64,000 nucleotides of DNA from Hyphococcus sp. Its GTDB lineage: Bacteria; Pseudomonadota; Alphaproteobacteria; Caulobacterales; Parvularculaceae. This document shows, piece after piece, positions 49,265-62,306 of this stretch. The DNA lies in the NCBI RefSeq assembly GCF_965228385.1, contig NZ_OZ245810.1, positions 1,075,565 through 1,139,564 of the forward strand, in the 5' to 3' direction. Below the pieces are notes generated by a model. That model was given only the letters and a program-made list of their open reading frames with translations, was not told the origin of the DNA and did no database searches. The position numbers were made by a program, and so were the translations under genes. Numbering within the stretch: the first letter of the stretch is position 1; every line of letters begins with the position of its first letter.

Positions 49265-52009
49265 ATGACCGCCATTACCCCTGAAATTGTCGCCGAGCAT
49301 GGCCTCAAGCCCGAAGAATACGAGCGTATCAAGACACATATGGGCCGCGAGCCCAATCTGGTCGAGCTTGGCGTCTTTTCGGTCATGTGGTCGGAGCATT
49401 GCTCGTATAAATCATCGCGCCGCCACCTGAAGAAACTGCCGACCTCCGCGCCATGGGTTGTGCAAGGTCCGGGCGAGAACGCAGGCGTCATCGATATCGG
49501 GACGGATAATGACGGCGTCCCGCTGGTGGCGGTCTTCAAGATGGAGAGCCACAACCATCCAAGTTTCATCGAACCCTATCAGGGCGCGGCGACGGGCGTC
49601 GGCGGCATCATGCGCGATGTCTTCACCATGGGCGCGCGGCCCGTGGCCAATATGAACGCGCTGCGCTTCGGCGAGTGGGCGCACCCCAAAACCCGCCATC
49701 TCGTGGCTGGCGTTGTCGGCGGCATCGGCGGTTACGGCAATTGCATGGGCGTGCCGACCGTCGGCGGCGAGACCAATTTCGACGCCGGCTATAACGGCAA
49801 TATTCTCGTCAACGCCATGACCGTGGGCGTTGCAGAAAAAGCGAAGATTTTCTATTCCGCCGCGCGCGGCGCCGGCAATCCTGTCGTCTATGTCGGATCG
49901 AAAACCGGGCGCGACGGCATTCACGGCGCCACCATGGCGAGCGCTGAATTCGACGACGCTTCGGAAGAAAAGCGTCCCACCGTGCAGGTCGGCGATCCGT
50001 TTACGGAGAAATTGCTGCTCGAAGCGTGTCTGGAGCTCATGGCGTCCGACGCGATTATCGCCATTCAGGACATGGGGGCGGCGGGCCTCACATCCTCTTC
50101 GGTTGAAATGGCGGCGAAAGGCGGGGGCGGTTTTGAGCTTGACCTCGACCACGTGCCCCAGCGCGAAGACAACATGACAGCCTATGAGATGATGCTGTCG
50201 GAAAGCCAGGAGCGCATGCTCATGGTGTTAAAGCCGGGCCGCGAAGACGACGCGCGCGCCATCTTTGAAAAATGGGGCGTCGATTTCGCGGTGATCGGCG
50301 TGACCACGGATACGGGGCGGCTGGTCATCATGCATGAGGGCGAGACCGTCGCCGACATGCCGGTGCCGCCGCTGGCGGACGACGCGCCGAACTATGACCG
50401 CCCGCATGAGCCGGCCCCGAAGCCCGCGCCGCTGGACGATCCGAAAGTCTCCTATCGAGAGGCCGAAGCGATTTTGAAATCGCCCGGCAAGTCGGAAGAG
50501 GAAATGCGCAATGTGGCGCGAACCCTCATCGATGACCGTCTCGCCGATCCTGATCTTGTCGATGCGGTGGGCATGACGGCGCAGGCCGGCGAGGCGCGGG
50601 TCTATGTGCGATCCGGGCCCGAGGGCGTCAGCTTCTCCGGATTTGAAGAAGCCGTGCGCAACCTATCGTCGGGCGGTGTCGTTGAAACGACCGAAGTCGA
50701 ACAGCGCGAGGAAACCTTGTCGCTGGCGGAGGCGCCGGGCGGCGACACCATGCTGACGGCGCTTGCGAAACTTGTCGCGTCGCCCGATCTGTGCTCGCGC
50801 CGGTGGATATGGGATCAGTATGATCACACGGTGATGGGCGACACGGTGATCCACCCCGGAGGCGACGCTGCTATTGTGCGCGTGCACGGAACAAACCGCG
50901 CGCTCGCCATAACAACCGATGTGACGCCGCGTTATGTGAAAGCTGATCCGCATGAGGGCGGCAAACAGGCGGTGGCGGAAACATACCGCAATATCTGCGC
51001 AACCGGCGCCGCGCCGCTGGCGATCACAAACTGTCTTAATTTCGGCAATCCGGAACGCCCGGAAATCATGGCCCAGTTTGTCGGCGCCATTGAGGGCATG
51101 GCGGAAGCCTGCGAGGCGCTGAATTATCCGGTGATTTCCGGCAATGTCTCGCTCTATAACGAAACCAACGGCGCCGCGATTCCGCCAACCCCGGCCATTG
51201 GCGGCGTCGGCGTTCTGGAAGACGCCACGAAAGCCTGCCGGGTCGGCGGCGCGGAAGCCGGCGAGGAACTGCTCGCCATCGGCGTGACGCGCGGATGGCT
51301 CGGACAGTCAATTTACATGCGTGATCTTTTCGCAATTACGGACGGCGCGCCGCCGCCGGTTGACCTGGAGAGCGAACGCAAGACCGGTGAACTTGTCCGT
51401 AAGCTGATCAGCGAAGGGCTGGTCACCGCATGTCATGACGTATCGGACGGCGGATTGCTGATCGCGGCGGCGGAAATGGCGCTGGCTGCAGGCAGGGGCT
51501 TAAACCTGACGACGCCGGTGAAGCAGCGCAAGGCCGCCTTCTGGTTCGGCGAGGATCAGGGGCGCTATCTTGTGGCCGCCGCGCCCGCCGCCGCCGACAC
51601 GCTTTTGTTGAAAGCCGCCATGGCGGGCGTTCAGGCGTCGAAGATCGGCCGTTTCGGCGGTCCCGACCTGACGCTGGACAGCAATGATTCGCTCTCATTG
51701 CTTGATTTATCTGATATTTTTGAAGCCGCCCTGCCAGATTACATGAACGCCCAGACGAAAAAGGAGCCCGCCCCCATGCCTATGGCCGGAGACGACATCA
51801 AGAAACTCATTCTCGACGCGCTGCCCGACGCGGAAATTGAACTGGAGGACCTTGCCGGCGACAATGACCACTGGCGCGCGCGCATAATCTCATCGGCGTT
51901 CAACGGAAAGTCCCGCGTTCAGCAGCATCAGTTGGTCTACAGAGCATTGAAAGGCCGCATGGGCGGCGAGCTTCACGCCCTCGCGCTGGAGACGGAGGCG
52001 CGGGAGTAG
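49265..52009 (+). CDS. purL: Phosphoribosylformylglycinamidine synthase subunit PurL, in frame with BolA
   Basis: [37 protein letters not shown] and HDVSDGG motifs. PurL homology ends near 51751 and the frame continues into BolA. Confidence 0.92.
51776..52009 (+). CDS. bolA: BolA/IbaG-family protein, nested in frame at the end of the purL ORF
   Basis: Own AAGGAG RBS at 51761-51766. MPMAGDDI...DLAGDNDHW...[14 protein letters not shown]...LHALAL. Confidence 0.88.
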
Positions 52010-52033
52010 GTTCAAGCGGCAAAGGGGAGACTA

Positions 52034-52585
52034 ATGTTCAAACTTAAACGGCTAGCGATAAAAACAGCATTTGTATTGCTCGGCGTGCTTTGCACATTGG
52101 GTTGCGCAAGGAGCGCGGCAGAGAACGATATTCACGATGACATCGATGCGGTCATCATCAATCTTGAAAGCGCCTGGGCGGCCGCCGACGGCGAGGCGTG
52201 GTCTGATCAGTTCACCGACGACGCTGACTTCATAGTCTGGTTCGGGCTGCGCCTGCACGGCGCAAAGGAGATCGGCGATGGCCATCAAGGCATCTGGGAC
52301 GATTTTTACGCCGGAACGGTTTTCGACCTTGAAATAGAATCTGCGCGCCTGATCGCTGACGGCGTTGCAATTGCGCATCTGGATGGCTGGATTTATCGTG
52401 CAGGTGAATCTCGTCCGCAAACGCCTGCCGTTTCGAAGCCGATAGTCGTTTTGGCGCAAACCGAACGGGGCTGGAAAATTGAAGCCTTCCAGAACACGCC
52501 GGGCTTTGGCCCTCAATGTTTCGGCAACGAACTCGCTGATGTCGTTGCGCGCGGCGGCTGCGTTGCGCCCGGCGGCGGGGAGTGA
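52034..52585 (+). CDS. SgcJ/EcaC (SnoaL-like) family exported protein
   Basis: WAAADGEAWSDQFTDDADFIVWFG and GWKIEAFQNT; signal peptide. Confidence 0.8.
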   Translation: MFKLKRLAIKTAFVLLGVLCTLGCARSAAENDIHDDIDAVIINLESAWAAADGEAWSDQFTDDADFIVWFGLRLHGAKEIGDGHQGIWDDFYAGTVFDLEIESARLIADGVAIAHLDGWIYRAGESRPQTPAVSKPIVVLAQTERGWKIEAFQNTPGFGPQCFGNELADVVARGGCVAPGGGE

Positions 52586-52598
52586 CACGCCCAGCGGG

Positions 52599-52688
52599 CA
52601 GCAGCTTCAGTTGGTCTACAGAGCATTAAAGGGCCGCATGGGCGGCGAGCTTCAAGCCCTGGCGCTAGAGATGGCGGCGCGGGAGTAG
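52599..52688 (+). pseudogene. Duplicated 3' 90 bp of bolA
   Basis: 82/90 nt identical to 51920-52009, including the stop codon. No 5' part or start. Confidence 0.9.
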
Positions 52689-52793
52689 TGGGCTTTGGGT
52701 CCGGTTAAGGGGCCACTTTCGTTCTTCAGGCCTTTGCTAGCGGATGGCCGAAAATCGCCCTCGAAGTGGACGGTCGAGGCCGACGTGCATCTG

Positions 52794-53153
52794 TCAAATC
52801 GCGGCGCCCTCAAATTCTCCGAGCTTCATTACATGATTTTCCAGGAATTTGTCACGAAGGTTTTGCCGCAAAACGCGAAATTTGCCGCCAACTAAAGTGA
52901 CCGAACTATTTGGGAGACGCGCAAATGCATAGGACGCGTTCGGAGGGATAATTACATCGCGCCCGTTCACGAGAGACTGAAACGCATCCGTATCATCGTT
53001 CGCGCCGTTTCCCCACAGCACAGGGACATGTGCTTTTGCCCCGGCTGGAATTGTCACAGATGAGGCGATTGCGGTCGCGAGAAATGCCCGTCTCGAAAAT
53101 GCAATCAACTCCGAATCTCCGTCCGCAACACCTACTGAGAATTGCTGCATCAA
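52794..53153 (-). CDS. Hypothetical or fragmentary ORF with a Tat-like signal and a GxxDDT motif
   Basis: SRRAFLATA and LWGNGANDDTDAFQ. Confidence 0.4.
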   Translation of the reverse strand: MMQQFSVGVADGDSELIAFSRRAFLATAIASSVTIPAGAKAHVPVLWGNGANDDTDAFQSLVNGRDVIIPPNASYAFARLPNSSVTLVGGKFRVLRQNLRDKFLENHVMKLGEFEGAAI

Positions 53154-53243
53154 TTTATTCCCTAGTTTGCAGGAGAATGATAGAGCGGGATGCAGTTGAA
53201 TTCCGGCCGAACAGCAGCCTAGGCCGTTGGATGGAGAATTGTA

Positions 53244-54044
53244 ATGAACCGCCTAAGAAATGATCACCTCTATATGATGCCTGCCCATTTTGGGGGAAAA
53301 CCGGGAGGTATGACGGCGACAACCTATCATGACACGGTGAGCGCCACCATCCGATACGAAACCGATCAAGACGCACTCGAAGCGCTGATACCAGAAGGTT
53401 TTGAACTTCGTTCTGCGGAGATTATGGTTGCCGCAATGATGAATAGAGGCGTGGAATGGATGGCGGGTGAGCCCTATAACATCGTCGCAGTGAATGCGCC
53501 GGTGCGATACCGAAAAGCATCACCAAATATCGATGGCTGGTATTCATTGGTTGTATGGGAAAACAAAACCACGCCGATTCTTCCCGGCCGGGAACAAACC
53601 GGTATTCCCAAGATTTATTCGGAAATTGAAGAATTTCGGTTCCTCGGCGATGAGATGCGCACTTGGGCGCATTACGGCGGCCATAGTTTTTGCGACCTAC
53701 ATTTTTCGAATATCCGCGAAGCCAGCGCTGATGAGCGGCGCCAAGTTGATGATGAGTTTCGCACAATGAACTGGATGGCATGGCGCCATATTCCCAAACC
53801 GGGCGAAGGCGGCGGTGCATCGTTGTCCGAAGCGACCCTGTTTCCGCAAGAATTTGAAAGCAGTCGGGTAAGGCTAGCAGATGCAAGCTGCGTCTGGTCA
53901 ACGCCGCCCTTTTGGAAAAACCCAATTCAGGCCCATATCATTGCGCGCCTTGAATCTTTGCCAATCGTTTCGCCTGTTGGGCCAGCAATAATCATGAATG
54001 CAAAGAATATATTGCGCGGCGATCTAGCGAAGCTGCTCGATTAG
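53244..54044 (+). CDS. Acetoacetate decarboxylase family protein
   Basis: YMMPAHFG, YETDQDALEALIPEGF and PILPGREQTGIPKIY motifs; GGAG RBS. Confidence 0.8.
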   Translation: MNRLRNDHLYMMPAHFGGKPGGMTATTYHDTVSATIRYETDQDALEALIPEGFELRSAEIMVAAMMNRGVEWMAGEPYNIVAVNAPVRYRKASPNIDGWYSLVVWENKTTPILPGREQTGIPKIYSEIEEFRFLGDEMRTWAHYGGHSFCDLHFSNIREASADERRQVDDEFRTMNWMAWRHIPKPGEGGGASLSEATLFPQEFESSRVRLADASCVWSTPPFWKNPIQAHIIARLESLPIVSPVGPAIIMNAKNILRGDLAKLLD

Positions 54045-54083
54045 CATTTCTGACCCGAATGTCCGAGTAGGGCCCCAAAGCAG

Positions 54084-54158
54084 TCATGACCACAAAATCA
54101 AAATGATGAACATGGCAATCGGCGCGGCGTAACGGATGAAGAACCGCCATTCGCGGAA
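54084..54158 (-). pseudogene. Diverged duplicate of the NSS transporter 3' coding segment
   Basis: Translates FREWRFFIRYAAPIAMFIILILWS* against FRYWRFFIRYAAPIAVFLILILG in the intact gene. 54115-54149 matches 55460-55494 at 33/35 nt. Confidence 0.85.
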
Positions 54159-54322
54159 GCGGCCGCAACGCGTATACACATTTTTTCCACCGATGACCTG
54201 CATAAACGCGCGCATCGCGGGCTGAGGTTCCATAGTCGGTGATCCGTTGCTTTATTGCGGCGATCCGGCTTGCTTGCACGGCGTTCCATAGGTCAAAAAG
54301 TTCACGTAAAGAGGGGATAGAT

Positions 54323-55387
54323 ATGAGACACGGCGCAATTGCGTGTGCAGGCCTGGTCCTGCTGGGCTGCGGCGCAGAAAACGCCGCGCCGCCGGCGCGG
54401 CGGCCCGCGCCAGACATACCGGCGCTTATGGCGGCTGCGAATGCGCCCGGCCTGTCGATCGCAACGATTGACGACTGTGAATTGTCGGATGTCTCCCATT
54501 ATGGCGTTGCGGATATCGAAACCGGCGAGCCGGTTGACGACACCACCCGATTTGAGGCCGCATCCTTGACCAAGACGATCTTCTCGCTGATTGTTAATCA
54601 GCTTGCGGATGAAGGCGTGATTGATCTCGATCATCCGATCGCCGACAATTTTGATTACCCGCGTGTGACCGACAAGGACGCCTATGCGGTTTTGACCCCC
54701 CGCATGATTTTAGCGCACAGGTCCGGTTTGCCGAACTGGGCGGGCGATCCGCTCGACGCGGAAACCTGGGGCGACATTCCCTTCAACAACCCGCCCGATA
54801 CGCAGTTCGGCTATTCCGGCGAAGCCTATCAGCTGCTTCAGGCCTATGTTGAGAACGTCACAGGAAAGTCTCTCGATGTTCTGTTCGCAGAACGCCTCGG
54901 CGATTTAATGCCGCTTTCTTCCTTGTCGGTGGCGAGAGAGGACGCAAGCCCGAGTTTTGGCCATGACAAAGACGGCGGCAAGGAAAAAGGCCGCGCCATT
55001 GGCGAACTGACCAGCGCGGGCGCCGCATATTCGGGGCAGAGCAACGCGCGCGACTATGCGCGGTTTCTCAGTCATCTGTGTGAGGGCGCTGGCATGAGCG
55101 CCGATGCGCGCGATGCGATGCTGGAGCCGCAATCCCCGACTGACGCGCCTGAAATCGCGTGGGCGCTTGGCTGGGGCGTGCAGACGGGCGAAAATCCTGT
55201 TTATTTCCATTGGGGCGACAATGGACCGTTCAAGGCGTTTACGGCGTTCAACCGGGAAACCGGCGACGGCGTCGTTTATTTTGCCAACGCCATGAACGGG
55301 CTGATGCTGATCGAACCCATCGCCGCTCCGGTGGTGGGCGATGTCGGCCCGATCGTTGACTGGCTTGATTACGGACGGGTCGACTAG
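54323..55387 (+). CDS. Serine hydrolase lipoprotein (beta-lactamase fold)
   Basis: Lipobox LLGC; ASLTK, HRSGLPNW, YSGE and HWGDNG motifs. Confidence 0.88.
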   Translation: MRHGAIACAGLVLLGCGAENAAPPARRPAPDIPALMAAANAPGLSIATIDDCELSDVSHYGVADIETGEPVDDTTRFEAASLTKTIFSLIVNQLADEGVIDLDHPIADNFDYPRVTDKDAYAVLTPRMILAHRSGLPNWAGDPLDAETWGDIPFNNPPDTQFGYSGEAYQLLQAYVENVTGKSLDVLFAERLGDLMPLSSLSVAREDASPSFGHDKDGGKEKGRAIGELTSAGAAYSGQSNARDYARFLSHLCEGAGMSADARDAMLEPQSPTDAPEIAWALGWGVQTGENPVYFHWGDNGPFKAFTAFNRETGDGVVYFANAMNGLMLIEPIAAPVVGDVGPIVDWLDYGRVD

Positions 55388-56745
55388 CCGCCCGACAACA
55401 TTGCGTTCAACCCAAGCTGAAACTTTGCGTCGATTCCCAGAATTAAAATCAGAAACACCGCAATCGGCGCGGCGTAGCGGATGAAAAACCGCCAGTATCG
55501 GAAAACGCCGTCGCTCGTATTGTGCAGTTCCCCGCGCATGATCGCGCGCGGCACGATCCAGCCGGCGAAAATGGCGACGAGCAATCCGCCGAGCGGCAGG
55601 AAAACGCTCCCTGAAAAAAAGTCGAGCCAGTTCCCGAGACCGCCGATATAGATCGTCATGGCGCCGATGACCCACGCGATAAGTCCGAAAATTATCGCGG
55701 ACGATGTACGCCCGAGGCCGAGCTGATCTTCGCCGACCGAAGACGTCACCAGCAATAGCGATATGGACGATGTCAGCGCCGCGATAAAAGCGAGAAAGAA
55801 GAACAGCCCGCCGATAAGCGCGCCGGCCGGCATGCCGGAAAAAACTGCGGGCAGGGCGTTGAAAATCAGCCCCATGCCCGCGGCGGGATCCAGCGCATAA
55901 GCAAATACGACCGGAAATATCATCAGCCCGGCGACGATGGCGACGAGTGTATCGGCCCCGGCGATGACAGCGGCGTTGTCGCCGATATTTTCGGTTTTGG
56001 GCAGGAATGAACCATAGGTCATCATGATCGCGCCGCCGACGCCGATGGAAAAGAACGCCTGTCCCAGCGCGGATAAAACGATGCCCGGCGTGATTTCCGA
56101 AAAGCGCGGCGAGAAGAGGTAATCGAATGCCTGGCCCGCAGCCCCTGTCATCAAGGCGTAAAGGCTGAGGCCGATCAGCATCAGGAAAAAGATCGGCATC
56201 AGGATTGTCACCACGCGCTCGATCCCGCCTTTCAGGCCGCGCGTAACGATAAAAATGGTGAGCCCCATGAACAGCGTGTGCCAGAACAGCGCCATGCCGG
56301 GGCCGTTATAAAGGGAAGTTGCAACGGCCGCGTCCGCCGCCGAGCGCCCGGCGAATTCACCCATGAAAGACATCAGCGAATAGGCCATCACCTGCCCGGC
56401 GATCACGCTGTAAGTTGTCAGAACGAGAAAAGCTGCGAGCACGCCTGCCAGCCCGACGACAAGCCAGCCGGGAGATTTCCCGATATCGACGGCAAGCTGT
56501 TTCGTGCTGCCGACCGCCGACAAACCCTTGTGGCGGCCGATGGCGAGCTCGCCCATGAGGATCGGGTAGGCGATAAAGGCGACGCAGATGAGATAGACGA
56601 AAACAAATGCGGAACCGCCGTTTTGTCCGGTTTGAAACGGAAACCGCCAGAGATTGCCAAGACCGACGGCGGAACCGATCGCCGCCATCAAAAATGCAAA
56701 ACGTGACGACCATTGTGGCGTGACGCCGCCGGTTGGACCTGCCAT
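55384..56745 (-). CDS. Sodium-dependent transporter, NSS family
   Basis: WSSRFAFLMAAIGSAVGLGNLWRFP, GQAFFS and FLAFIAALTSSIS motifs. Confidence 0.93.
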   Translation of the reverse strand: MAGPTGGVTPQWSSRFAFLMAAIGSAVGLGNLWRFPFQTGQNGGSAFVFVYLICVAFIAYPILMGELAIGRHKGLSAVGSTKQLAVDIGKSPGWLVVGLAGVLAAFLVLTTYSVIAGQVMAYSLMSFMGEFAGRSAADAAVATSLYNGPGMALFWHTLFMGLTIFIVTRGLKGGIERVVTILMPIFFLMLIGLSLYALMTGAAGQAFDYLFSPRFSEITPGIVLSALGQAFFSIGVGGAIMMTYGSFLPKTENIGDNAAVIAGADTLVAIVAGLMIFPVVFAYALDPAAGMGLIFNALPAVFSGMPAGALIGGLFFFLAFIAALTSSISLLLVTSSVGEDQLGLGRTSSAIIFGLIAWVIGAMTIYIGGLGNWLDFFSGSVFLPLGGLLVAIFAGWIVPRAIMRGELHNTSDGVFRYWRFFIRYAAPIAVFLILILGIDAKFQLGLNAMLSGG

Positions 56746-56906
56746 GAGACCTCTCAAAAATAGCGCTGCGCGGTTTGCGCGTTTTTTCGAATTATACGTG
56801 TTTGCAACCGGCGCGAATAGCCGCGCCGCCGCCTGATTTCGCCCGCGTCTTGCTACGCGCATGCGGGGCGCCTAATGTGCGCGAAAATCCAATATGAGGT
56901 ATTCCC

Positions 56907-58832
56907 ATGAGTTTACGCGCCGCTGCCCTGGTTTTTTCGCTTTCCGCCCTTGCCGCCGGTTGTTCCCGCGATGGCGGCGACGCGGAGAGGGAGCCGGTAA
57001 GCGATGAGCCTGGCGTGGAGACGGAGGCTCACTGGTCGCCGGTCCCGGCGGATGAGGTGCGTGATCCGTTTACCTACTCGAACTATCACGAAGCGCGGGT
57101 CACCCATGTGGAGCTCGATCTCGATGTGGATTTTGAGACGAAAACCCTGTCCGGTTCGGCGCAACTGGATTTTGAAAAATTAAGCGACGATGTTTCCACG
57201 CTTGTTCTCGATGCGAATGATCTCGATATCGAACTCATTGAGGCGGAAACTGACGACGGCTGGGTAACGGTCAGCTATGAAATCGGCGCCGACGACGCTG
57301 TTATGGGGTCGCGTCTCGCCATAGAATTGCCGGACGGCGCTGAATCGGTTCGTGTCAATTATTCAACAAGTCCGGATGCGGAAGGCATACAATGGCTTTC
57401 GCCGGAACAGACAGCCAGCGGCGAACATCCATTCCTGTTTACGCAGTTCCAGCCGCTGCTGGCGCGCACCATGGTTCCCTTGCAGGACACGCCCGCCGTG
57501 CGCATCACCTACGACGCCCGTATCACGACGCCGCCGGCGCTGCTCGCCGTGATGAGCGCGCGCCAGGATGAAAGCGGCGAACGCGACGGCGATTATTCAT
57601 TCAGGATGTCGCAGCCGATTCCGTCTTATCTTCTGGCGCTGGCGGTCGGCGATATTCAGTTCGAAGCGATCAGCGCCGATGTCGGGGTTTATGCGGAAGA
57701 TTATATCGTCAGCGAGTCCGCGGCGGAGTTCGAGGATACGCCGCAAATGGTCGATACGGTGGAGGCGCTTTATGGCCCCTATCGCTGGGGCCGCTACGAT
57801 CTGATTGTGCTGCCGCCGAGCTTTCCGTTTGGCGGCATGGAAAACCCGCGGCTGTCTTTCATGACGCCGACGCTGATAGCGGGCGATAAAAGCCTCACCA
57901 ATGTTGTTGCGCATGAACTGGCGCATTCATGGTCCGGGAATCTGGTGACCAATTCCACATGGCGCGATGCATGGTTGAACGAAGGGTTCACCAGCTATGT
58001 TGAAAACCGGATCATGGAGGGCCTTTACGGCCCGGAGCGCGCCGTGATGGAGCGCTCGCTTGATAAGCAGAGCCTGATGCGCGACGTCAACGAGGCCGCG
58101 CGTCCGGAACTGACGGCGCTGAAAATGCCGGAAGACATCTCCCATCCGGATGAGGCGTTCAGCCAGGTCTCCTACGCCGGCGGCATGTTCTTCCTGAAAT
58201 TTATGGAGGAGCGTTTCGGGCGCGAAGCCTTTGATGCGTTCCTGCGCGATTATTTCGACAGATTCGCGTTTCAGAGCATCACGACGGAAGATTTCCTCGC
58301 CTATTTTGAAGATCATCTCTGGGCGGATCAGCCCGATGCGGTGACCAAGGCGGAGATTGACGCCTGGGTTTATGAACCGGGTTTTCCGGACACGATTGAA
58401 AATCCGCAGTCCGACGCCTTCAACCGCGTGGAAAGCCAGCTCAACGCCTGGCTTGGCGGCGGCGATGTGGCCGGTCTGGAAACCGGCGCATGGACGACCC
58501 ATGAATGGCTGCACTTCATCAGCGTATTGCCTGCGGAGATTTCGTCCGAGCAGATGGCGGCGCTGGATGCGCGGTTTAATCTTTCAACGTCGCAAAATGC
58601 GGAGATCGCAAGCGCCTGGTATCTGAAAGCCATTCCCGCCGGCTATGAACCCGCGTTCGAGCCGCTTGATGCTTTCCTGATGCGGGTCGGGCGGGGCAAA
58701 TTTATCTATCGCCTGTATCAAAGCCTTGCTGATAACGGCCGTCGCGAATGGGCCGAAGCCGTCTATGAACGGGCGCGCCCCGGTTACCATCCGATCGCGC
58801 AGCGCCGTATCGACGAGATTTTCGGCGAATAA
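56907..58832 (+). CDS. M1-family aminopeptidase (LTA4 hydrolase-like) lipoprotein
   Basis: GGMENP, HELAH...WLNEG and VGRGKF motifs. Confidence 0.93.
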   Translation: MSLRAAALVFSLSALAAGCSRDGGDAEREPVSDEPGVETEAHWSPVPADEVRDPFTYSNYHEARVTHVELDLDVDFETKTLSGSAQLDFEKLSDDVSTLVLDANDLDIELIEAETDDGWVTVSYEIGADDAVMGSRLAIELPDGAESVRVNYSTSPDAEGIQWLSPEQTASGEHPFLFTQFQPLLARTMVPLQDTPAVRITYDARITTPPALLAVMSARQDESGERDGDYSFRMSQPIPSYLLALAVGDIQFEAISADVGVYAEDYIVSESAAEFEDTPQMVDTVEALYGPYRWGRYDLIVLPPSFPFGGMENPRLSFMTPTLIAGDKSLTNVVAHELAHSWSGNLVTNSTWRDAWLNEGFTSYVENRIMEGLYGPERAVMERSLDKQSLMRDVNEAARPELTALKMPEDISHPDEAFSQVSYAGGMFFLKFMEERFGREAFDAFLRDYFDRFAFQSITTEDFLAYFEDHLWADQPDAVTKAEIDAWVYEPGFPDTIENPQSDAFNRVESQLNAWLGGGDVAGLETGAWTTHEWLHFISVLPAEISSEQMAALDARFNLSTSQNAEIASAWYLKAIPAGYEPAFEPLDAFLMRVGRGKFIYRLYQSLADNGRREWAEAVYERARPGYHPIAQRRIDEIFGE

Positions 58833-58836
58833 ACCG

Positions 58837-59943
58837 TTATTGCTGCGTCGCCGCCGGGCCGCGCAGCAATATTTCCAGCATTGGACAGACCATCACGTGT
58901 CCGTCAAACACGGCGCCCACAATCAGCGTGTTCGCCCAGACGGCGCCCACCGACGACGCGTTGATTTCGCCGTTGACGGAGATCAAAACGTCCGACGCGA
59001 GCCCGTTGCGCGGATTGAGGCGAATAACATGCGACGGCGCCTTTGCATTTTCATCCTTGGCGTGTTCGAGAAATTCAAAAATCCTTGAATGGCCCGCCAC
59101 CCACAATGCGCCGTCCCGCGAGACCTCTATGTTGTCCGGCGCCGTATTTATTTTCAACGCCTTCACGCGCGAGAGTTCTCCGGTCTCAATATCGCGGTCG
59201 AAAACCAGAATACGGCGTTTTAACAGCTCGGCGACATATATTGTTTTTCCGTCAGCCGACTGATTAATACCGTTTGCGTAAGCGATGCCGCCTTTGGCGA
59301 TCCGGCCGTTTTCACCGTCGTAATAGGCGACGTTCGACAGCGGCAACGCCAGATAGGCTTCCATTGCAGCGAGAAACCCGCGGTCAAATTTCTGATCGTT
59401 GGTGACGTAAAACTGCCTTGGCCCGACGGCGACCAGATCGTTGGGCGATTTCATTTGCGGAAAGGAAATCGTTTCCAGATGCGTCAGCGCGCCGTCCGCC
59501 GCGATATCGAAAAGTTCGACCAGCTCCTCGCCCGTCGGCGGATGTGAAATCACAAAGAGGCGTTTTTCGCCGTTTGGTCCGCGCCAGAGACTGACGCCGT
59601 GCGGCAGGAAATTCTCCATCGGCGGCGACACTTTGCGCACGTCCGATCCGTCCATCGACATGGCGTAAATGCCGTTCCTCGGGTTAACCGATTGCTCTGC
59701 GTCCTTGGCGTACCAGCCGCGCCGGTCGGCGGCGGATATGAACGCAAGACCCAGATCCGGGTCGATCGTGACGTCTTCAGCGCCCGGCGCAACATCGACC
59801 CTCGCACACTGATTAACGAGCTTGTTGGAAAGTTCTACGCCCGCGCCGGAAGCGGGAATCGCATGCAGCAGCGACCATGCCGCCGCCGCCGCGATAATCG
59901 CAGCCGCCCCGCCTAACAGATACTGCATACGTATTCTCACCAC
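58837..59943 (-). CDS. Arylesterase/paraoxonase-like beta-propeller (SMP-30 family)
   Basis: GAEDV, PHGVS, PNDLVAVG, YANGI and PDNI motifs. Confidence 0.85.
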   Translation of the reverse strand: MVRIRMQYLLGGAAAIIAAAAAWSLLHAIPASGAGVELSNKLVNQCARVDVAPGAEDVTIDPDLGLAFISAADRRGWYAKDAEQSVNPRNGIYAMSMDGSDVRKVSPPMENFLPHGVSLWRGPNGEKRLFVISHPPTGEELVELFDIAADGALTHLETISFPQMKSPNDLVAVGPRQFYVTNDQKFDRGFLAAMEAYLALPLSNVAYYDGENGRIAKGGIAYANGINQSADGKTIYVAELLKRRILVFDRDIETGELSRVKALKINTAPDNIEVSRDGALWVAGHSRIFEFLEHAKDENAKAPSHVIRLNPRNGLASDVLISVNGEINASSVGAVWANTLIVGAVFDGHVMVCPMLEILLRGPAATQQ

Positions 59944-60072
59944 ACCGGCGCTTCCTCGGCCGAACTCGCCGCAGAAAACTTTACATCACTCGGGAAAAAT
60001 CCGCTACCCGTGTGGAATTCAACGATTTTTCCGCCATCATGGAAATATTGAGCCTGAATTTGGAGCGAAATT

Positions 60073-61035
60073 ATGACCAGACCCGTCATCGCAACGCCGC
60101 GCCGCCTGCCGGAAGCGCTTTCCGGCATGTTTCGCATGAAGTTCGATGTCCGCGAGCCTGATGCGCCGGTCGCGGACCCGGCGGCTTTCGCAGAACTGGC
60201 CGGGGATGCGCAGGCGGTCATCGCCACGGCGTTTGACGACATGGACGCTGCGTTTTTCGAACGTCTGCCGGCGGGCGTAAAGTTGATCGCGTCCATCGGG
60301 GTTGGCGTCGATCACATCGATCTGGCGGCCGCGAAAGCGCGCAATGTCGCCGTCTCCAACACGCCCGAAGTCACAACCCCCTGTCTCGCCGACACGACCA
60401 TGGGGCTGATTATTGCGGCTTGCAGACGTTTCCGGGAAGGGCTTGATATAGCGCGCACCGGCGAGGGGCGCGGCATGCTCACCCCCGAAAGCTGGGGCCA
60501 GCGTGTGACGGGCAGAACGCTTGGCGTGGTCGGGATGGGAAATGTCGGCCGTGAAGTTGCGAAACGCGCGCGCGCATTCGACATGAACATCATCTATACG
60601 ACGCCCCGGCCGTCGGCGGATATCGACAAGACTTTCAACGCCCGCGCCATATCCCTTGATGAACTCCTGCGCGAGGCGGACGTCATCACATTGCATTGTC
60701 CGTTAAAGGAAGAAACGCACCGGCTGATCGACGCCAAAGCCATCGCGAAAATGAAACCGGGCGCGGTCATCATCAATATTTCCCGCGGGCCTGTAATTGA
60801 TGAGACGGCGCTGATCGTGGCGCTGAAAGAAAACCGGATATTTGCAGCCGGCCTTGATGTCTATGACACTGAGCCGGGTCCAATCCGCGAAGCCTTGCGC
60901 GCCTTGCCGAATGTTTATTGCCTGCCGCACATTGCGTCTGCGACCACCGAAAGTCGTTCCGCCATGGCGGTGCGCGTCCTCGCCAATCTTGACGCGTTTT
61001 TCGACACCGGCGCGCCGCTCGACCGGGTTGTGTAG
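60073..61035 (+). CDS. D-2-hydroxyacid dehydrogenase (glyoxylate reductase-like)
   Basis: GVGVDHID, GMGNVG, LHCPL, INISRG, GLDVY and LPHIAS motifs. Confidence 0.9.
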   Translation: MTRPVIATPRRLPEALSGMFRMKFDVREPDAPVADPAAFAELAGDAQAVIATAFDDMDAAFFERLPAGVKLIASIGVGVDHIDLAAAKARNVAVSNTPEVTTPCLADTTMGLIIAACRRFREGLDIARTGEGRGMLTPESWGQRVTGRTLGVVGMGNVGREVAKRARAFDMNIIYTTPRPSADIDKTFNARAISLDELLREADVITLHCPLKEETHRLIDAKAIAKMKPGAVIINISRGPVIDETALIVALKENRIFAAGLDVYDTEPGPIREALRALPNVYCLPHIASATTESRSAMAVRVLANLDAFFDTGAPLDRVV

Positions 61036-61040
61036 TCTTC

Positions 61041-61892
61041 ATGACGGTTTCGAGCGTGTTGATCTTCGGCGCAGGCGGCGCGGTTGGACTTGAAGCGGCG
61101 CGCAATGCGGCGGCGCGCGGGCTATCGGTTGTCGCCGCCTATCGCACAGAGCGCAGCGGCGTCTCTGAAAAAATTCAAAATTGCGGGGCGCGCGCGGTTA
61201 AAGCGGATCTTGAAGACACGGATCATATAAAAACGCTGCTGGCGCAGTCAGACGCCGTCATCTTTACGCCGATATTATCGGTCTCGGCGCAGGCCGCGCC
61301 GCTGCTCGGAAGAACCCAGCGCGCGATATTTTTCTCCAGCAACAATGTGGCCATCGATCCGCAAGCGGATGATTACGCGAGAATTCTCGAAGCGGAGGCG
61401 ATGGTGCAGCGCGCCGCGCCCGCGGCGGCGATCCTGCGGCCCACCATGATTTACGGCTATCCGGGCGACGGAAATATATCGCGATTAATGACGCTGATGC
61501 GGCGCGCGCCGCTGGTTCCCATGATCGGGCGCGCCAGCGCATTGCAGCAGCCGGTTTATTTCAAGGATCTGGCCCGTGCAGCGCTTGATGAACTGTTCAA
61601 TGACGCGAAGCCGGCGGGCGTCTGCGCGGTGGCTGGGCCGACAGCCATAACAAAAAAAGAACTCTACCAGGCTGTTGCAGCCGCCTCGGGCGCCAGAACC
61701 CATATCTTGCCCGCGCCTGTGGGGCCGGCGGCGGCCATGGCGCAATTCCTCGAGAGGGCCGGCCAGAAAACAGGGTTGAAAAGGGCGCAATTACAACGCG
61801 CAGATCTGGACAAGACGCCGAGAGGCGGGCGCCTCATTCTTGGCGAAACCCGCCTGGAAGACGGATTGCGGGCGCTCGCCGCCGAACTCTGA
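61041..61892 (+). CDS. NAD(P)-binding atypical SDR/epimerase-like protein
   Basis: IFGAGGAVG, LRPTMIYG and QPVYFKDLA motifs. Confidence 0.8.
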   Translation: MTVSSVLIFGAGGAVGLEAARNAAARGLSVVAAYRTERSGVSEKIQNCGARAVKADLEDTDHIKTLLAQSDAVIFTPILSVSAQAAPLLGRTQRAIFFSSNNVAIDPQADDYARILEAEAMVQRAAPAAAILRPTMIYGYPGDGNISRLMTLMRRAPLVPMIGRASALQQPVYFKDLARAALDELFNDAKPAGVCAVAGPTAITKKELYQAVAAASGARTHILPAPVGPAAAMAQFLERAGQKTGLKRAQLQRADLDKTPRGGRLILGETRLEDGLRALAAEL

Positions 61893-61915
61893 CCCATACC
61901 GCCGGCGCAACCGGC

Positions 61916-61945
61916 CTTGACGATGCGCCGGGCGGCGCCTAGCTA
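61916..61945 (+). promoter_or_regulatory. Possible RpoH-type promoter for grxD
   Basis: CTTGAC-N16-CCTAGCTA, about 30 nt upstream of the ATG. Confidence 0.35.
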
Positions 61946-61973
61946 ACGGTGATCTGTCAGGAGTTTTAATATT

Positions 61974-62306
61974 ATGACCGACGCCGCACATGCCGATATC
62001 AAGTCGAAAATCGACGCCAACCCGGTAATGGTTTTCATGAAAGGCACGCCGCAATTTCCGCAGTGCGGATTTTCCTCGGTCGTCGTCCAGATTCTCGACC
62101 ATCTCGGCGTGGATTATGGTTCCGCGAATGTGCTTGAATCCGACGACTTGCGTCAGGGCGTCAAAACCTTTTCTGACTGGCCGACAATTCCCCAGCTTTA
62201 TGTGAAGGGCGAATTTGTGGGCGGCTGCGATATTGTCCGCGAAATGTTCGAGCAGGGTGAATTGCGCGGATTCCTGCAGGAAAAAGGCGTTCCGGTCGCA
62301 GCCTGA
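61974..62306 (+). CDS. grxD: Monothiol glutaredoxin (CGFS)
   Basis: [22 protein letters not shown] and GGCDI motifs. Confidence 0.96.

Follow-up and report, generated by a model that had tools for sequence, protein, structure and literature searches.

Does the chromosome of Hyphococcus sp. encode the purine-biosynthesis enzyme PurL and the small protein BolA as one polypeptide, and if so, is this union an accident that has been tolerated or something that has been kept? The question arises from a 64,000-nucleotide stretch of this genome (contig NZ_OZ245810.1, positions 1,075,565 to 1,139,564; hereafter the window), in which a first-pass annotation had seen purL run into bolA without an intervening stop codon. 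Comparison across the family points to an ancestral stop loss that gave rise to a selectively kept PurL-BolA fusion, most likely with two products, a tethered and a free BolA. From the genomes compared, we put the probability of this reading at roughly 0.8.

PurL and BolA in one reading frame

In the translation of the window, PurL, a linker and BolA form a single uninterrupted frame on the plus strand, which runs from 49205 to the TAG at 52007–52009, the sole stop of the fused gene. The longest open reading frame (ORF) opens at a TTG (49205), and the ATG at 49265 matches the N-termini of relatives in the alignment and is the probable true start, by which the fused gene would span 49265–52009 (plus strand; 914 codons and the TAG). 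Between 49265 and 52006 there is neither a stop nor a change of frame, and ordinary decoding yields a PurL-BolA fusion. Programmed stop-codon readthrough or recoding is ruled out, as there is no bypassed stop or frameshift site within these limits.

Residues 1–827 (49265–51745) make up a small-type PurL, a subunit of formylglycinamidine ribonucleotide (FGAM) synthetase, which ends in the conserved LPDYM motif. It is followed by a linker of ten codons ([10 protein letters not shown]; 51746–51775), a former intergenic spacer that is now translated and predicted to be flexible, and by a BolA domain of the YrbA/IbaG type (BolA_H) with 77 residues (51776–52006). The first-pass annotation had placed the elements of this junction exactly: LPDYMNA, a CAG codon at 51752–51754, the Shine-Dalgarno-like motif AAGGAG at 51761–51766, whose GGAG core recurs in most family sequences, and, after a 9-nt spacer, the ATG CCT ATG at 51776–51784, which is the start of the free-standing bolA in unfused relatives. 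Its observations that no stop parts the two genes and that the in-frame linker contains BolA’s own ribosome-binding site and start codon are confirmed, and the fusion that it had proposed is indeed encoded, with a complete PurL (NF002290) and a BolA domain (PF01722) in one polypeptide. The junction peptide [19 protein letters not shown] likewise agrees with the translation of the window.

A search of the whole genome returned the fused gene as the only match to the PurL C-terminus and as the only YrbA-type BolA; since there is no second copy of either, both functions rest on this one gene. A scan for promoters and terminators around the junction gave nothing that exceeded the expectation from shuffled sequence.

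To find out how far the fusion extends, a junction query of 219 residues (PurL C-terminus, linker and BolA) was searched against whole genomes. In the genus, the junction is free of stops in 47 of 47 informative species genomes, that is, those in which it is assembled, at 80–92% identity. Sampling of the order yielded 28 informative genomes from the same GTDB family, and none of these has a stop either, at identities down to 59%; the lone family genome without a match has its purL cut by the end of a contig. Among the outgroups with separate genes, the order-level tally counts an unpublished genome (G086) on which no claim rests. A census of the family, made with BolA as the query, covered 150 species genomes from 13 genera, of which 138 have a YrbA-type BolA and 137 are informative. 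Here, BolA lies inside an open frame that runs up into purL in 136 of the 137, representing 11 genera, which is far more than chance would give. The fused genomes are independent assemblies and include complete, single-contig genomes. Where the frames found in the census are short, this is due to contig ends or to frameshifts higher up in purL with the junction itself open (G647 and G711), and a second contig of G652 that carries outgroup-like sequence is probably contamination.

In both genomes of the genus g18 (G166 and G636), the assembly lacks the YrbA-type bolA along with the 3' part of purL, although marker genes put their completeness at 98–99%; this suggests that the purL-bolA region is hard to assemble in this genus.

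The names attached to the fused proteins and loci are Hyphococcus, Marinicaulis and Amphiplicatus, or those of metagenome-assembled genomes (MAGs) of Parvularculaceae or Caulobacterales. About 190 fused proteins are found in a collection of 5.8 billion proteins, where they are labelled plain PurL; one label from the Joint Genome Institute (JGI) reads ‘FGAM synthase-like enzyme/stress-induced morphogen’. We also observed a family-type fusion on a contig (L061) from a MAG that bears the gammaproteobacterial name Glaciecola sp.; the junction on this contig is the same as at locus L040 (genome G101), and the Glaciecola label looks wrong.

Outside the family, the two genes are neighbours of a different kind. 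In neighbouring families, purL stops a few codons past a conserved [YFL]M motif (1–10 codons past YM), followed by a spacer of 3–20 codons and then by an ATG-bolA with an M-P/A-M start, in many cases without a change of frame; a TAATG overlap of the two genes was seen once. Of 400 genomes sampled from the rest of the Alphaproteobacteria, 66 have both genes adjacent in one frame, and 65 of these carry at least one stop. A scan of named genomes gave the same picture, with 19 family-type loci that are all stop-free and a stop in 60 of 60 other in-frame neighbours. As the relatives keep both genes in one frame, parted by a stop and a short spacer, stop loss is the right kind of event to explain the fusion. 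This part of the first-pass proposal thus holds, given the in-frame stops of the outgroups, while the notion of a recent single-base change does not, the fusion being fixed across 11 genera.

One stop-free junction lies outside the family, in a complete genome of another alphaproteobacterial family (G456; L045:1049–3664, minus strand; linker DRDGGSGGAG). All eight congeners of this genome have separate, out-of-frame purL and bolA genes, and its junction would represent either a recent singleton event or an error. Because it is stop-free while its congeners have separate genes, PurL-BolA fusions appear to arise sporadically and, to judge from these genomes, have been fixed and kept in this family only.

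We thus propose that purL lost its stop codon in an ancestor of the GTDB family to which Hyphococcus, Marinicaulis and Amphiplicatus belong, at a time when a yrbA-type bolA lay downstream in the same frame, translationally coupled and separated by a spacer of about ten codons. As the sequence itself dictates, ribosomes that finish PurL have since then continued through the old spacer, and the product is a 914-residue FGAM-synthetase subunit whose C-terminal BolA_H domain hangs from a short, flexible tether. Selection would hold the reading frame open, and the Shine-Dalgarno core and ATG of the old bolA are retained at the nucleotide level. The output of the locus would most likely comprise the tethered PurL-BolA plus a smaller amount of free 77-residue BolA. 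In kind, such an event resembles the Rosetta-stone fusions that form by stop loss between translationally coupled neighbours and keep the nested gene: here, too, the neighbours share a frame, the spacer is short, and the Shine-Dalgarno sequence and ATG are retained. What sets this case apart from other stop-loss fusions is the duration and completeness of its retention, and the unexpected pair of partners.

The open frame and the internal start

The argument for selection comes from the linker. In 30 family sequences, it has lengths of 6, 7, 8, 9, 10, 11 or 18 codons, with visibly longer ones among the loci of the named-genome scan, and its sequence is barely conserved. Since the lengths differ yet stay in frame, several insertions or deletions must have occurred, all in multiples of three. 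Stops are absent from frame 0 of the linker in all 30 sequences but present in frame +1 in seven and in frame +2 in twelve of them. Furthermore, four-fold degenerate sites are saturated, with a total of about 30 substitutions per site on a tree of 26 sequences (a rough length, taken from saturated sites in 116 columns), and the linker holds several codons that are one step away from a stop. With synonymous divergence at this level and such codons at hand, a new stop would be expected to have arisen many times if the frame were neutral. The missing stops therefore argue that the fusion itself is under purifying selection, as a regained stop would just restore the layout that works in other Alphaproteobacteria, and we infer that the open frame is kept by selection.

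The alternative that survives best is that of a tolerated accident, in which purL lost its stop by chance and the fusion as such serves no function. The working BolA would then be the free one, initiated internally, and the tethered form would be harmless and persist only because frameshifts are harmful. An unstructured and poorly conserved linker is what one would find in such a case, the Shine-Dalgarno core and the ATG are conserved just as in unfused relatives, a comparable stop-free singleton without spread exists in another family (G456), and the analysis found nothing that links PurL and BolA mechanistically (for an iron-sulphur (Fe-S) cluster in PurF, see below). However, if only the free protein mattered, regaining a stop ahead of the Shine-Dalgarno motif would do no harm and should be common, whereas it is seen in none of the 136 fused genomes; nor would an accident explain why frame 0 is stop-free while the other two linker frames are not. 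We consider this explanation unlikely, though it deserves to be taken seriously.

Sequence comparison also speaks for the internal start. In 27 of the 30 family sequences, an invariant ATG is preceded at 6–9 nt by a GGAG core, against a background of 3.4% in windows of equal size elsewhere in the same ORFs, and a four-base Shine-Dalgarno variant is present in all 30. GGAG is kept while the residues that it encodes change (K-E, T-E, P-E, M-E or E-G-E), and it occurs in two codon phases, which suggests a constraint at the nucleotide level. In the aligned fused proteins, the first Met (M838) is invariant, and P839 and M840 are conserved to at least 90%. The same Shine-Dalgarno and ATG signals serve the free-standing bolA of unfused relatives. 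A free 77-residue BolA is probably still made by internal initiation, next to the tethered form.

It is conceivable instead that all BolA is made within PurL and that GGAG and ATG are conserved through an amino-acid or RNA constraint. Ribosomes translating through an internal start can occlude it, and MPM might matter structurally where the BolA fold begins. Nevertheless, we regard such a fusion-only output as very improbable: GGAG is kept despite the residue changes and in two codon phases, its spacing to the ATG stays at 6–9 nt, and identical signals serve free-standing bolA genes in outgroups. Finally, the true sequence might have TAG at 51752 and separate genes, whether through a sequencing error, which the first-pass annotation had held to be plausible, through misassembly or through a recent mutation private to this genome. 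This reading has next to no chance of being right and is refuted by the comparative data: a single base does part CAG from TAG, and most Alphaproteobacteria have purL and bolA as separate genes, but of the 137 informative species genomes, which come from independent assemblies, 136 have a stop-free junction, and the codon at this variable position differs among congeners (GAG, CAA, CTC, GCC, GGA, GAA, GCA, ACC, GAC, CTA or CCA) and is never a stop. With such a range of codons in the congeners, the lost TAG that had been expected in place of this CAG cannot be pinned to the position.

Returning to the selectively kept fusion with two products, several points weigh against it besides the roughness of the tree length. 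The sole genome of one genus (G629), a 58%-complete MAG, has a 6-kb contig on which purL ends in TAA and bolA lies in a different frame; this points either to a basal lineage or to a contig that was binned wrongly. Because of the kinship among the species, neither the census nor the frame counts are made up of independent observations, and conservation of the frame could stem partly from the cost of a junk C-terminal tail on PurL. Both the 100-kDa fusion and the free BolA are predictions from sequence, and in the AlphaFold2 model of the fused protein the BolA part is of moderate confidence only, with a predicted local distance difference test (pLDDT) score of 60–87. Moreover, our analysis found no functional reason for tethering BolA to PurL.

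The two parts of the protein and their surroundings

The PurL part matches NF002290 with 1004.8 bits (cut-off 648) and TIGR01736 with 921.8 bits (cut-off 525.75). Each of these models aligns in two stretches because an insert interrupts the match. Among the Pfam domains, PF00586 (AIRS) and PF02769 (AIRS_C) are found twice each, and PF18072 (FGAR-AT linker domain) is present. In its full-length match, its duplicated AIRS/AIRS_C halves and its N-terminal linker domain, the protein is thus like the small-type PurL of the PurL-PurQ-PurS complex, and a separate purS gene lies elsewhere in the same genome. Compared to the ~740-residue PurL of neighbouring families, however, the fused PurL has gained not only the C-terminal BolA but also an internal ferredoxin-like insert of ~93 residues (residues ~394–486; 50444–50722, plus strand). 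It sits between the two PurL halves, apart from the fusion junction, and is present in all family members examined while absent from the PurL of neighbouring families.

Modelled alone, the insert is predicted to form a beta-alpha-beta-beta-alpha-beta (ferredoxin-like) domain with a pLDDT of 82. It has no match in Pfam, and a Foldseek search with the model returned just generic ferredoxin-like, PII-like or dimeric alpha-beta-barrel folds (best E-value 4.6e-4, template modelling (TM) score ~0.5). That the insert is a captured PurS was considered and rejected, given the separate purS gene, the missing Pfam match and structural matches to generic folds only, at a TM score of ~0.5. The insert is a second family-specific addition to the same PurL protein. 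In large PurL enzymes, the glutaminase domain is C-terminal to the synthetase domain; by analogy, and as speculation only, a C-terminal tether on the small PurL may therefore lie near the side on which PurQ docks.

At the C-terminus, PF01722 scores 48.9 bits (cut-off 25.7) over profile positions 26–73. The nearest solved structure is that of YrbA from S. meliloti (SmYrbA; PDB 5NFK, E-value 4.4e-24), a member of the BolA_H subfamily to which E. coli IbaG also belongs. Its solved chain of 75 residues is matched from end to end, and both of its histidine ligands are kept: His32 corresponds to H869 of the fusion (51869–51871) and His67 to H904 (51974–51976), and both are invariant in 27 fused proteins. 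In SmYrbA, these two histidines bind metals, and they are Fe-S ligands in BolA-glutaredoxin heterodimers (PMC7538681). Because both ligands, whether for a metal or for a glutaredoxin-bridged [2Fe-2S] cluster, are retained, the fused BolA domain presumably continues to pair with the monothiol glutaredoxin GrxD. The genome encodes one CGFS glutaredoxin, this expected partner, whose gene grxD lies ~10 kb downstream (61974–62306, plus strand; TIGR00365 146.3 bits, with a match to PF00462), and one other BolA, which is of the classical type and located elsewhere. The arrangement differs from that of SmYrbA, which is a free 77-residue protein, whereas here the domain forms the C-terminus of PurL and grxD is ~10 kb away; in unfused relatives, the yrbA-type gene is placed between purL and grxD.

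The AlphaFold2 model of the whole fused protein has a mean pLDDT of 75 and a predicted TM score (pTM) of 0.73. It leads from the C-terminal helix of PurL through a stretch of low confidence (residues 832–838, pLDDT <50) into the BolA fold, and the linker is accordingly predicted to be a flexible tether of roughly a dozen residues. Natural chimeras of BolA are known, namely Grx-BolA in Methylococcales and SufE-BolA in plants (PMC7538681), and the structure of the latter (plant SUFE1, PDB 4PUI) is among the structure matches of the fused BolA domain. As in these chimeras, BolA is joined here to another protein via a short linker; in contrast to them, where the partners are Fe-S trafficking proteins, the partner here is a purine-biosynthesis enzyme without a known Fe-S role.

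The first-pass annotation had suggested that a fusion would couple Fe-S trafficking to purine synthesis; one concrete link of this kind, an Fe-S cluster in PurF, was tested and is unsupported. The PurF of this genome (L046:1426–2991, minus strand) is closest to the Fe-S-type amidotransferases 6LBP and 1AO0, but of the four columns that hold Cys in both references, two are occupied by Asp and Thr. In B. subtilis PurF, the cluster has a set of four Cys ligands. There is also another Cys in the protein, seven residues upstream of one of the two non-Cys columns.

Apart from the fusion, the DNA downstream of bolA is of interest in its own right. A copy of the bolA 3' end, 32 codons long with the stop included and 78% identical, lies at 52590–52688. 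Bracketed by this dead copy and the real bolA end is a gene of 183 codons (52034–52585) that is weakly DUF4440-like, with a Pfam score below the gathering score, and a similar bolA-end remnant occurs in another species (L006). No two species of the genus share the sequence that lies directly past the bolA stop (here 52010–61973; loci L002–L020 and L031–L042). In several outgroups, grxD follows directly after bolA (L026, L028 and L045); in the fused family, it is not found within 1.5–3 kb of bolA, with one exception at 1.7 kb (L038). The gap between bolA and grxD looks like a hotspot for gene gain.

Records, wider reading and significance

The fused gene is already in the databases, in records that are inconsistent with each other: one and the same open frame is entered either as a ‘PurL’ of ~914 residues or as a nested 77-residue ‘BolA family transcriptional regulator’. 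Records of free-standing 77-residue BolA, at 74–96% identity, do exist, as they would if some members of the family had reverted to separate genes. Such reversion is rejected, as the free-BolA records that were traced (P0149, P0160, P0123 and P0133, a set that excludes P0122 and P0127) reflect choices made in annotation. P0149 matches, at 100% identity, part of a 1234-codon open frame of G645, P0160 comes from a genome (G619) with an intact 938-codon frame, and P0123 and P0133, both 129-residue calls, read through the purL-bolA junction. Either kind of record, ‘PurL’ or nested ‘BolA’, hides the fused architecture. A full-text search of the literature found no paper describing a PurL-BolA fusion. 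PurL-BolA is hence a new domain architecture of a known kind, with PurL as a new partner of BolA, that has been present in the databases unremarked.

Beyond the family, the order purL-yrbA-grxD is widespread in Alphaproteobacteria. A bolder reading of the fusion, in the Rosetta-stone sense, would be that YrbA-type BolA and glutaredoxin physically act on or with FGAM synthetase throughout this class, and that the family has hard-wired the contact while keeping free BolA for other partners. We put this forward as a tentative and rather doubtful idea; within it, one possibility is that BolA gates the assembly or activity of PurL/PurQ according to iron or redox status.

In summary, the locus offers a clean natural example of a gene that probably yields a tethered and a free form of one small protein. 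BolA proteins are widespread and poorly understood partners of monothiol glutaredoxins, and the placement of the yrbA-type gene next to purL in Alphaproteobacteria has no known explanation. That the fusion has been retained in 11 genera is as strong a hint as genome comparison can give of a real link, functional or physical, behind the purL-yrbA neighbourhood, and cultured, non-pathogenic marine strains of the family allow this link between PurL and BolA to be put to the test.

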